Shown: positions 60,001 to 63,000 of the stretch, one piece after another | Position numbering within the stretch: position 1 is the stretch's first letter | Layout of the letters: each line of letters opens with the position of its first letter | NCBI GenBank assembly: GCA_030650425.1 | Contig: JAUSED010000008.1 | Coordinates: forward strand, 132,554-196,553 | DNA: 64,000 nt | Direction: 5' to 3' | Origin: Candidatus Omnitrophota bacterium | GTDB lineage: Bacteria; Omnitrophota; Gorgyraeia; Gygaellales; Profunditerraquicolaceae | Program-made: the position numbers

Positions 60001-63000
60001 TTGGCTTACTGAATTTAAAGCCCTTCGTCCTTGGATACGTTTTATTGCCTCTCTAATTAATCGGATCAACACACGGGGATTTGCCTCTTACTTAATTCAA
60101 GAGCAGCCGGAGTATCTTATTTCTACTCATTTCCTTCCTTCGGAAATCGCCTGCGGTTTAAAAGAAAGAAAAAAAATAAAATCAGCGGTGATTACCATCA
60201 TTACTGATTTTGGGGTGCATCCATTTTGGGTCTGCGAGGGGACGGATTTATATGTTGCGGCTTCGGACTTTACTAAAGAGAGGCTTTTGTCTGAGGGAGT
60301 AGAAGAAGGTAAGATAAAAGTTTTTGGCCTTCCCTCCGACGCTAAGTTTTTAAAACAATTTGATAGGCTCACTCTAGCGGCTAAGCTTGGGCTTGATGGG
60401 GCTAAATTTACGGTTTTACTGATGACCGGCTCTTTTGGTATCGGCCCCCTTGAAGAGATTGCCTTGTTACTTTACCGTGATGTTCAGGTGGTTGTTATCT
60501 GCGCGAATAATAAAAAATTGTTCGCGAAATTAAGCAAAAGAAACCTTCCTAATGTGCTTCCTCTTGGTTTTGTCAGCAATGCCGAAGAGATTATGGCTGT
60601 TTCCGATATTATTGTAACTAAACCCGGCGGTTCTACGATAGCAGAAATCCTGAATATGGATTTAGCCCCTATATTCATATCTATAATTCCCGGGCAGGAG
60701 AGCTCTAATGTTGAGGCGTTAGCTGAATTTGGCGTAGGCTCAAGCCCAAAAGACATCCGTCAGATAAGGGATGTAGTTTTAGATTATAAAAACCATCCTG
60801 AAAAACTCCAGGAAATAAAGTATAATATCCAAAAGATCAAGAAACCTTTTAGCTGCCAGGAGATTTCCGGTGTTATACGCTAAAATAGCGGTAGGTCTTC
60901 CGGTTAGCGGACCGTTTGATTATATTGTTCCGGATCCTTTATCTGGAAAAATAACGCTTGGCGCGAGGGTTTGGATTAGCTTTGGAACAAGGCGTATAGT
61001 CGGTTATGTGGTTGGCCTTTCTAAAAAGAGCGAAATTAAAAGTTTAAAACCGATTTTGGAGCTGATCGATGAGTTTCCGATCTTAACCAAGAAATTGCTT
61101 TTATTGACTAAAGAACTGGCGGAGTATTATTATTGCTCTTGGGGAGAGGCAATTGAAACAGCGATTCCTGAGGGTTTGAGGAAAGGGAAAAAAGGGGACA
61201 CTTTCCAACAAGCAGTAAGCGAGCGTAGGAAAATGTCCCCTGAACGGGGAAAAATAGAAGCGTCCCCTTTTTTAATAGGGCTAATTCATGATCTAGATGG
61301 AGAAGCGCGCTGGGACGTCTATCTTAAAGAAATCAAAAACACCTTAAGCAGTAATTTGTCGGCGATAATTTTATTACCGGATATTCCTTCTAGCCTTAAA
61401 GCCGCCCAAATTATTGAGCAACAACTTGGGATTAAGGCGCAGCTTTTATGCCGTTCTCAACCAAAAGAATTAGACGAGTGGATAAGGTCAGTCGATTCCA
61501 AGGTTATCGTTGGCACGCGTTCAGCGGTTTTCGCGCCCTTAAATAATTTGGGCCTGATCATTATTGATGATGAAGATGATTTTGCCTATAAGCAGGATCA
61601 GGCGCCGCATTATCATGCCCGGGAAATAGCTTTGATGCGCGCCAAATTTGAAAGCGCAAAAGTAATTTTAGGGAGCCGGGCGCCGTCGCTGGAAAGTTTT
61701 TATTTAACCAAGAAACATAAAGCTCAATATACGATTATCCCGCGGAAAAAAGATTTCCCCGAAATAAAAATTATTGATACGCGCCGTCTGCCTTTTCAGG
61801 ATAAAAAGAGAAGGGCAATTTTTTCCAGATTACTGGAGGATGCTCTTTATGCTGTTTTAAACGAGAAAGGTAAGGCGCTTTTATTTCTTAACCGTAAAGG
61901 TTTCGCTACCTCGGCCACCTGCATTACCTGTGGAAAAATTATTAAATGCCCGCGCTGCAGCCTAAACTTAGCCTATCACTTTAAGGATGATTTACTAAGC
62001 TGCCACTATTGCAATTTTAAGATTCCGCTTCCAAAGATTTGCCCTGAATGTAATTCCGGCTATATTAAGCTTTCCGGAGCGGGGACCGAAAAGATAGAGA
62101 GTGAGCTGTCCCGGATTTTTCCGCAAGCGCGGATTAAAATTATCGACGATAAAGATCTCAATCTGGAAAATTATGATATATTCATAGCTACGAGCGGCGT
62201 GATTAAGCGCGGGGATCTTGTTTTTGACCTAATTGGAGTCTTGGGGATAGATAATGCCTTAAACCGCGTGGATTTCCGGGCCACGGAGAAGGTGTTTGGT
62301 TTATTAGCCGGCCTGCTTAACCTTACGCGTAAGAGAATTCTGATTCAAACCAGTTCTCCCAATCACCATTGCTTTCAGGCGCTGCTGAAGAAAGACGCGA
62401 ATTATTTCTATGAAGAAGAGTTAAAACAAAGAAGACAGTTGGATTTTCCTCCGTATAAGCATATGGTTTTAGTAAAGCTGCGCGGGGAGAAAGAGGAAAA
62501 GATAAAAGCATCGGCGGAATCGCTATTCAGTAGGCTGAAAGAGGCCGATAAAGATAAAAGTATTGAAATAATTTCAGTCAATTCTTCTAGTCCGGCTAAA
62601 TTACGGGGTAATTATTATTGGCAGGTTTTAATCCGTTCCGGCAATGTTCTCAAGGCCAATAAGTTCTTAAAAAATAATTTAAAAGATTTCCGGCATTCAG
62701 GTATAATAGTGACGGTGGATGTAGATCCGCTGTAAGGAGCGCTATGAAAATTGTTTTTTTTGGAAGTTCACATTTTGCCGTTCCAGCGCTAGAGGCATTG
62801 ATTAAGAACCATTATCAAGTCAGCGCTGTTGTGACCCAGCCGGATAAAAAGAAAGGCCGGCATCTGCATTTAGCGTCAACGGATGTTAAGTCTGTAGCTA
62901 GCCAGGCAGGTTTGGAAGTTTTTCAGCCGGAGGAGATTAATTCTTCTGATTCGATAAAATATCTAAAGAATTTATGCGCGGATCTGTTTGTTGTTGTTGC

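Follow-up and report, generated by a model that had tools for sequence, protein, structure and literature searches.

The priA gene and the domains of its product

The DNA analysed here, hereafter the window, is a 64,000-nucleotide stretch of a Candidatus Omnitrophota bacterium genome (assembly GCA_030650425.1, contig JAUSED010000008.1, positions 132,554 to 196,553 of the forward strand), and at 60870..62735 on its + strand lies priA, the gene for the replication restart protein PriA, whose helicase motifs have degenerated while the elements described as contacting DNA are kept. The gene has a GTG start codon with AGGAG 7 nucleotides upstream, and its first 14 nucleotides lie within the last part of the glycosyltransferase gene that precedes it. 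The 621-residue product is 100% identical to a database record for 'primosomal protein N'' from a Candidatus Omnitrophota bacterium (P0001), on a 288 kb contig. All features of the gene given below are likewise on the + strand.

A first-pass annotation of this DNA, made from the sequence alone, had read the open reading frame (ORF) as a PriA with a 3'-end DNA-binding N-terminus and a C-terminal domain, and profile searches bore this out. The NCBIfam model TIGR00595 (replication restart helicase PriA) scored the window protein at 388.7 bits (cutoff 230.35, E 4e-116), and Pfam placed the 3'-end DNA-binding domain (3'BD; PF17764, PriA_3primeBD, E 1e-25) at 60882..61169 (residues 5-100), a Zn_ribbon_PriA match (PF18319) at residues 360-386, and the PriA C-terminal domain (PriA_C; PF18074, E 2e-14) at 62451..62729 (residues 528-620). 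The protein fell under every cutoff of the PRK05580 lineage-specific equivalog models. The Pfam DEAD model (PF00270) reached 16.5 bits over residues 161-251, under its cutoff of 26, and Helicase_C (PF00271) gave no match in the window protein; for comparison, a canonical Omnitrophota PriA scored 47.9 and 41.7 bits, respectively.

The domain order is that of PriA, i.e., the 3'BD, two RecA-like lobes with a cysteine-rich insert in lobe 2, and the C-terminal domain. To this extent the protein is colinear with PriA, as the first-pass annotation had it; colinearity fails at residues 106-134 (61185..61271), where the winged-helix domain and the Q-motif segment have been replaced by a linker. Here ~25 residues stand in for E. 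coli residues 106-204, and the winged-helix domain (~109-181) is not present; the structure model described below has one helix at 110-122 and low confidence at 121-128. The linker has a median length of 17 residues in PriAs with degenerate motifs (hereafter degenerate forms) versus 150 in canonical forms. Since canonical Omnitrophota PriA and other short PriAs are also missing the winged-helix domain, this domain is not a defining feature of the PriA family.

Motifs lost and motifs kept

At the Walker A position the window protein carries HDLDGEARWDVY (61287..61322, residues 140-151), which pairs with E. coli AGVTGSGKTEVY in a phmmer search against the PriA chains of the PDB, in a MAFFT alignment and in an hhalign comparison with canonical Omnitrophota PriA. 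All three methods agree that LDGEARW stands in place of the VTGSGKT of PriA, with G144, A146, R147 and W148 equivalent to E. coli G227, G229, K230 and T231. For instance, phmmer against 8fak_H (native E. coli numbering) set 'glihdldGEARWdvyl' over 'llagvtGSGKTevyl', and hhalign, with the clade profile aligned to that of canonical Omnitrophota PriA (probability 100), set 'iLiHDLdG~~RWdiYl' over '~LL~GVTGSGKTEVYi'. The original observation that neither the Gly-rich loop nor the Lys-Thr survives is thus upheld, and the two errors that might have produced it are ruled out. There is no displaced intact P-loop, as neither [AG]x4GK[ST] nor GxxGK[ST] turns up when 60570-63035 is read in all six frames; nor is there a sequencing error, as all 111 full-length homologues with 54-71% identity carry the replacement motif as hLIHDLDGxxRWDIYL (R ~99%, W ~90%). 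The bases from 61287 to 61322 leave no doubt about the codons, which are cat gat cta gat gga gaa gcg cgc tgg gac gtc tat.

The degenerate P-loop is also shared by more distant relatives. When 1.84 billion representatives at 50% identity were searched exhaustively with HMMER, they yielded 23,695 PriA-like proteins, the best 150 representatives of which were examined; 143 were near full length, and 92 of these 143 have neither GxGK[ST] nor GRxGR, are ~610-625 residues long and have a 5-residue deletion in motif VI in common (hereafter the degenerate representatives), with identities to the window protein as low as 32%. A loss common to the 111 and the 92 homologues is not a sequencing artefact.

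Motif II reads IIIDDEDD (61557..61580, residues 230-237) and pairs with VIVIDEEHD, such that E. coli D320, E321, E322 and H323 become D, D, E and D; E321 is replaced by D234 and H323 by D236, the latter being the exchange of the motif II His for Asp already seen in the first reading of the sequence. Beyond what was noticed then, motifs III, V and VI are likewise degenerate. Motif Ia is changed from PEIxLT to PDIxS (in a comparison with E. coli PriA, four canonical PriAs of other candidate phyla and the 111 homologues) and motif III from GSATP to GSRAP. At motif V the protein has DIFIATSGVIKR (62175..62210, residues 436-447) where the canonical sequence is ILIGTQMxAKG; GTQMxAKG has become ATSGVIKR, the Thr (E. 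coli T539) being the sole kept residue. The remnant of motif VI, FGLLAGLLNLTRK (62295..62333, residues 476-488), has GLLNLTRK (LAGLLNLT in the query) for QVAGRAGRxGxxG, with five residues deleted and both arginine fingers gone. Also missing is a segment of ~25 residues that in E. coli contains the adenine-reading Gln (Q203). The positions conserved in at least 90% of canonical PriAs and in less than 30% of the 92 degenerate representatives include Q203, G224-E232 (the whole of motif I), H323, G355/A357/T358, G538/M541/G545 and Q580/G583/R584/G586/R587. Judged on its motifs, the window protein is without the signature of an active superfamily 2 (SF2; DExH) helicase (Walker A, DExH, SAT, QxxGRxGR).

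The elements that the window protein keeps are, by alignment with E. coli PriA, those described as contacting DNA. The 3'-end pocket described for E. coli PriA (PMC5778457) is present in full, F16, D17, Y18 and K60 being equivalent to E. coli F16, D17, Y18 and K61, and is well conserved in the 92 degenerate representatives (F 99%, D 90%, Y 100%, K 76%). Motif Ib, GTRSAVFAP (61512..61538, residues 215-223), keeps G302, R304, S305, F308 and P310 in E. coli numbering, and the aromatic-rich loop YKQDQAPHYHAREIALMR (61587..61640, residues 240-257), whose role is described in PMC5175346, is kept as YKQ...YHAR. Motif IV, FLNRKGFA (61884..61907, residues 339-346), is also conserved; in E. coli PriA its R427 and R428 bind single-stranded DNA within the PriA pore (PMC13594977). 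Where the first-pass annotation had proposed a single Cys4 zinc-binding insert, the cysteine-rich region (CRR; 61920..62051) contains eight cysteines (C351, 354, 360, 363, 378, 381, 391 and 394), i.e., two Cys4 sites. All eight are invariant in the close clade, where 62 positions are invariant and many more nearly so, including the 3'-end pocket and motif IV. Between them, motif Ib, motif IV and the aromatic-rich loop supply contacts to duplex and to single-stranded DNA. Overall, the kept residues include G302, R304, S305, Y327, K328, Q329, Y335, R344, N426, R427 and T539 (E. coli numbering).

Some positions are conserved in the degenerate family alone, namely D at E. coli 17, R at 105, Y at 483 (82%) and R at 642. 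The third of these is Y398 of the window protein, which lies just past the CRR at the position of E. coli H483, a PriB-docking residue; and E at E. coli 492, an interface residue of the CRR-up state in E. coli, reaches 90% in the degenerate forms. E. coli residue 697 was also considered as an SSB-contact residue; since E. coli PriA has Ser there, we make no claim of SSB binding.

We weighed whether the protein might nevertheless be an ATPase and helicase that uses a non-canonical nucleotide site, e.g., with R147 serving as the Walker A lysine and DDED binding Mg2+. Arginine or lysine stands at the K230 position in 67% of the degenerate representatives (R 50%, K 17%), acidic residues are retained in motif II (the Walker B Asp in 46% and the Glu equivalent to E322 in 97%), and in the structure model the former P-loop still runs from strand through loop to helix (strand at 135-141, helix from residue 147). 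However, K230R alone ends the ATPase activity of E. coli PriA (PMC5778457), and here G227, G229 and T231 are lost as well (G at the G229 position in 12% of the degenerate representatives, W at the T231 position in 50%), deletions have removed the motif VI arginines and the Q-motif segment, and motifs III and V have degenerated. Motif I is, moreover, nearly free to vary in the more distant members, e.g., CGRESEGVGSEI and HDKSNKKYWPFL, which argues against any surviving nucleotide site, as a working one would not tolerate such freedom. We consider this explanation very improbable, and the window protein is predicted to lack both ATPase and helicase activity.

An AlphaFold2 model of the window protein built from the clade alignment was confident (mean predicted local distance difference test score, pLDDT, 89.1; predicted template-modelling score, pTM, 0.88), and a Foldseek search of the PDB with it returned PriA chains at ranks 1-9, followed by Mfd and other SF2 proteins. 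The best match was to the fork- and PriB-bound E. coli PriA 8fak_H (template-modelling (TM) score 0.87, root-mean-square deviation (rmsd) 6.2), with the apo, ADP and double-stranded DNA forms at TM 0.74-0.75 and rmsd ~9.8. A control model of the canonical Omnitrophota PriA P0226 (pLDDT 90.9) showed the opposite preference, its best match being to the apo form 6dcr_A (TM 0.82, rmsd 4.5) ahead of 8fak_H (TM 0.79, rmsd 7.3). These models give a weak hint that degenerate PriA may favour the 'switched-on' (CRR-up) arrangement of its domains.

Distribution, selection and descent of the degenerate form

All degenerate members whose source is named belong to the Omnitrophota, 'Ca. Aceula meridiana' and genomes of Omnitrophica WOR_2 among them, and the loss extends over much of this phylum. 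To see where constraint has changed, mean pairwise identities were compared by domain between degenerate forms, which come from one phylum, and canonical forms, which come from many: these were 0.30 versus 0.51 for lobe 1 and 0.36 versus 0.53 for lobe 2, as against 0.41 versus 0.36 for the 3'BD, 0.38 versus 0.43 for the CRR and 0.28 versus 0.27 for the C-terminal domain. As the lobes are less conserved in the degenerate forms while the other domains are similar, constraint has been relaxed specifically on the motor, with the DNA-recognition and interaction modules still under purifying selection.

This pattern bears on the notion that degenerate PriA is a decaying relic without function, carried by small host-dependent genomes that do not need replication restart. 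Faster evolution of the helicase lobes than in canonical PriA, and a motif I free to vary in distant members, would suit such a relic. Decay of this kind is at odds, however, with intact full-length ORFs in well over 100 sequence clusters at identities down to 32%, with the invariant positions of the close clade set out above (among them the 3'-end pocket, the eight cysteines and motif IV), with a 3'BD at least as conserved as in canonical PriA, with the conserved operon position and ribosome-binding site, and with a confident, well-packed model; we find the relic explanation hardly credible.

The search also turned up partly degenerate PriAs of ~650-700 residues (one of 823) with mosaic loss (P0163, P0176, P0177, P0179, P0195, P0201, P0205, P0211, P0217, P0241 and P0263), of which the two source-named clusters, P0263 and P0205, are Omnitrophota. 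Several of these keep GSGK[ST] and are without the motif VI arginines or the His/Glu of DEEH; Walker A is kept and the motif VI arginines are gone in P0217, P0241, P0195 and P0211, which may hint that the arginine fingers of motif VI go first in the order of loss.

Canonical PriAs are also present in genomes labelled Omnitrophota (L009, P0305, P0306, P0319 and P0332). It was therefore necessary to consider whether the window protein is a diverged paralogue with a role other than restart, a canonical PriA elsewhere in the genome doing the restarting. The gene neighbourhoods argue otherwise. In the window, priA is preceded by genes for a HAD-family (GmhB-like) phosphatase (59242-59787, + strand) and an MGDG_synth-family glycosyltransferase (59792-60883, + strand) and followed by fmt (methionyl-tRNA formyltransferase; 62744..63688, + strand), which starts 9 nucleotides past the priA stop, the order being GT9 - DegT - GT2 - HAD - MGDG_synth - priA - fmt - GalT - GalT. 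The order is the same at the locus of P0145, a degenerate form 41% identical to the window protein; the intermediate Omnitrophota P0263 has HAD - MGDG_synth - UDG - priA ... fmt - GAPDH, where UDG is a uracil-DNA-glycosylase-family gene, and the canonical Omnitrophota P0319 has GT2 - HAD - MGDG_synth - UDG - priA - def - fmt ... GAPDH. Adjacency of priA and fmt, with or without def between them, was also found at the loci L001-L005, L007, L010, L017 and L018. Canonical, intermediate and degenerate forms thus occupy the same locus in different genomes, as expected of orthologues replacing each other, and we take this to mean that a housekeeping gene degenerated in place.

The tree agrees with this. 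In a neighbour-joining tree computed without the motif columns, the degenerate forms make up one clade nested within canonical PriA, adjoining a small group of canonical, short-linker proteins of ~670 residues, with the intermediates at the base of the clade. The canonical protein L009 (GSGKT and DEEH, from a genome labelled Omnitrophota) is nearest that ~670-residue group, and a search seeded from the group found ~45 clusters whose named members are all Omnitrophota. Furthermore, no assembly carried both forms in a pattern-limited genome scan. To our knowledge PriA is single-copy in nearly all bacteria. On locus and tree, the window priA is an orthologue and the housekeeping gene, not a paralogue, and we regard a paralogue with another role as improbable. 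Relatives whose PriA is canonical or partly degenerate share this locus and provide a natural series in which the order of loss, its compensation and the indispensable surfaces of PriA can be followed.

Two differences between these loci are of note in their own right. The uracil-DNA-glycosylase-family gene lies directly upstream of priA in canonical and intermediate Omnitrophota loci (L017, L020 and L021), and def lies between priA and fmt in the canonical locus; both genes are absent from the loci with degenerate priA, including the window. At one canonical locus, L017:11104-12052 (GCA_030698625.1, JAUYMS010000028.1), there is a called gene with an 11,156-residue product and no Pfam match on record; it begins ~4 kb downstream of the canonical Omnitrophota priA.

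As for the rest of the window, the 58 large ORFs (at least 120 residues and not nested in a longer one) all read along the + strand, with a positive GC skew (0.09-0.29) over the whole of positions 1-64000. The first 8.4 kb were listed as ORFs without annotation. From ~8.4 to 60.9 kb, which was annotated with Pfam, nearly all annotated genes are for polysaccharide or lipopolysaccharide-type synthesis, including Wzy_C polymerases, a Polysacc_synt flippase, NeuB/CTP_transf_3, many glycosyltransferases, radical-SAM proteins, methyltransferases and two carbamoyltransferases. Two ORFs of this cluster, at 38544-40649 and 44033-46111, are paralogous (701 and 692 residues, 33% identity, E 2e-100) and have no Pfam match; they look strongly hydrophobic and may be uncharacterised membrane glycosyltransferases or polymerases. 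No tRNAs or Rfam matches were found in the window, and promoter-like and terminator-like sites around priA were at chance level.

A predicted restart platform and its known counterparts

Based on the loss of the nucleotide-site motifs, the retention of the DNA-contacting elements and the orthology of the gene, we think it probable that the window priA is the single housekeeping priA of this Omnitrophota genome turned pseudohelicase, i.e., a fork-binding platform for helicase reloading that does not unwind DNA. The first-pass annotation had proposed a fork-binding loader dead as an ATPase and helicase, and this proposal gains support from the motif pattern and, by analogy, from the E. coli K230R and Deinococcus radiodurans PriAs discussed below; its alternative, that the organism restarts replication by another route, is not needed, though it could still apply. 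Fork binding and a role in restart would be retained, and partner proteins are predicted. At abandoned forks the protein would act as a structure-specific sensor, reading the nascent leading strand at its 3' end together with the arms of the fork; motif IV and the CRR would hold the single-stranded lagging-strand template; and the replicative helicase would be recruited directly or through a predicted partner. By analogy with E. coli PriA, which encircles ~9 bases of single-stranded DNA on the lagging-strand template as its CRR rotates up (PMC13594977), such a protein would work only on forks whose lagging-strand template is already single-stranded over roughly 9-11 bases or more. Where the lagging arm is duplex, either a different helicase or a nuclease would have to prepare the fork, or restart would not take place.

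Precedent for restart without a motor comes from E. coli, where PriA K230R, devoid of ATPase, helicase and translocase activity, still assembles primosomes and supports near-wild-type growth (PMC5778457). This mutant restarts forks by way of PriA/PriB and not PriA/PriC (PMC5778457; PMC13594977), and a review has asked why the activity of PriA is kept though E. coli copes without it (PMC5778457).

The question of duplex lagging arms raises a fuller version of the same explanation, in which restart proceeds as above and the forks are remodelled by an accessory helicase (Rep/UvrD/PcrA- or RecG-like) or by a new partner that docks on the CRR. In E. coli the CRR can switch position only once a duplex lagging arm has been opened, and Rep is thought to substitute for the missing helicase activity of PriA (PMC5778457; PMC13594977); the clade-specific residues at positions of the partner-docking surface, Y at E. 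coli 483 (82%) and E at 492 (90%), would fit a new partner. No such partner is encoded next to priA at the loci examined, and this version elaborates on the pseudohelicase explanation and does not contradict it. We hold it to be a serious possibility, though not the likelier one.

Several points weigh against the pseudohelicase explanation. The persistence of a basic residue at the K230 position (R 50%, K 17%) and of the E322-equivalent Glu (97%) may reflect a residual structural or ligand-binding use of the nucleotide pocket, and a second, weaker nucleotide site, without a known location, has been reported for E. coli PriA (PMC5778457). Among the annotated genes of the window (~8.4-64 kb) there is no priB, dnaT, dnaB, dnaC or dciA. 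Finally, as copy number was judged from the window and the syntenic loci, a second, canonical priA might lie elsewhere in the genome.

More speculatively, the degenerate PriA could have been converted into a permanently 'switched-on' fork clamp, resting in a CRR-up-like arrangement and presenting the conserved Y398, E407 and R538 as a lineage-specific docking surface for a partner that reloads DnaB. Taken with the loss published for Deinococcota and that seen at sequence level in Mycobacteriales, this would make fork recognition and loader recruitment the core function of PriA, and unwinding an accessory one that was lost repeatedly. We offer this view as a doubtful one.

With regard to known systems, the canonical PriAs of known structure, from E. 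coli and K. pneumoniae (4NL4, 6DGD, 6DCR and 8FAK), are like the Omnitrophota form in domain order and fold (TM 0.74-0.87, with 24-27% identity across the Foldseek alignments), and canonical PriA shares the priA-fmt neighbourhood; the Omnitrophota form differs in being without functional motifs I, II, III, V and VI and without the winged-helix domain, and in being modelled as 8FAK-like over apo. The 'helicase' label that automatic annotation gives to the degenerate PriAs is misleading. The E. coli K230R allele (priA300) has the same change at the catalytic lysine, the counterpart of R147, but there only this one residue is exchanged, the rest of the helicase is intact, and PriB and DnaT are its partners. 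In the Omnitrophota neither PriB nor DnaT is expected on current knowledge.

The closest natural parallel is PriA of D. radiodurans, in which the Walker A lysine is replaced by arginine and motifs I and II are off consensus, a phylum-wide trait; this protein is without ATPase or helicase activity and binds forks and DnaB (Lopper, Boone & Morrow 2015, PMC4504706). In the Omnitrophota form there is, besides, no Gly-rich loop, no Thr, no Q-motif segment and neither arginine of motif VI, in a protein of 621 residues with no winged helix. It appears to go further in one documented respect, in that poor matches to motifs I and II are described for the Deinococcus-Thermus proteins and the whole site is lost in Omnitrophota. 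A tblastn search with E. coli PriA of the plasmid collection returned no Deinococcus or Thermus PriA but did return one from Tsukamurella. Based on the tree and on synteny, the Omnitrophota loss appears independent of that in Deinococcus.

Our comparisons brought up a further case in the Mycobacteriales, in whose PriA (PRK14873-type) Walker A, motif II, motif V and the arginines of motif VI have likewise disappeared, motif VI being shortened by a deletion of similar size. Here the Walker A position reads WQALPGEDWxxRLAEL, motif II LWDDGDE and motif V VATPGA, and there are no motif VI arginines; the comparison set out from Tsukamurella tyrosinosolvens NZ_LR134460.1 (L019:1940-3931), and all 119 homologues examined (P0408-P0527; from Rhodococcus, Nocardia, Prescottella and Mycolicibacterium) are without a P-loop at the Walker A position. 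These proteins differ from the Omnitrophota form in several respects: they are 25% identical to the window protein, the Pfam models for the cysteine-rich and C-terminal regions match nothing in them, and their context is metK-priA. The Tsukamurella PriA scored a median of 125 bits against degenerate and 110 against canonical forms, too slight a difference to claim a common origin, and the likeness of LPGEDW to LDGEARW may be convergence or chance. Among the papers searched, none was relevant to Omnitrophota PriA or to actinobacterial PriA without helicase motifs. The loss in Mycobacteriales bears on replication restart in an order that includes M. tuberculosis.

Taken together, the PriA motor is lost in at least three phyla, the Deinococcota according to PMC4504706 and, as predicted from their motifs, the Omnitrophota and, with the Mycobacteriales, the Actinomycetota. 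The review literature has treated Deinococcus-Thermus as the sole exception to PriA being a helicase (PMC5778457); what is new here is a predicted PriA pseudohelicase in a second large lineage, of a kind already known from Deinococcus-Thermus.

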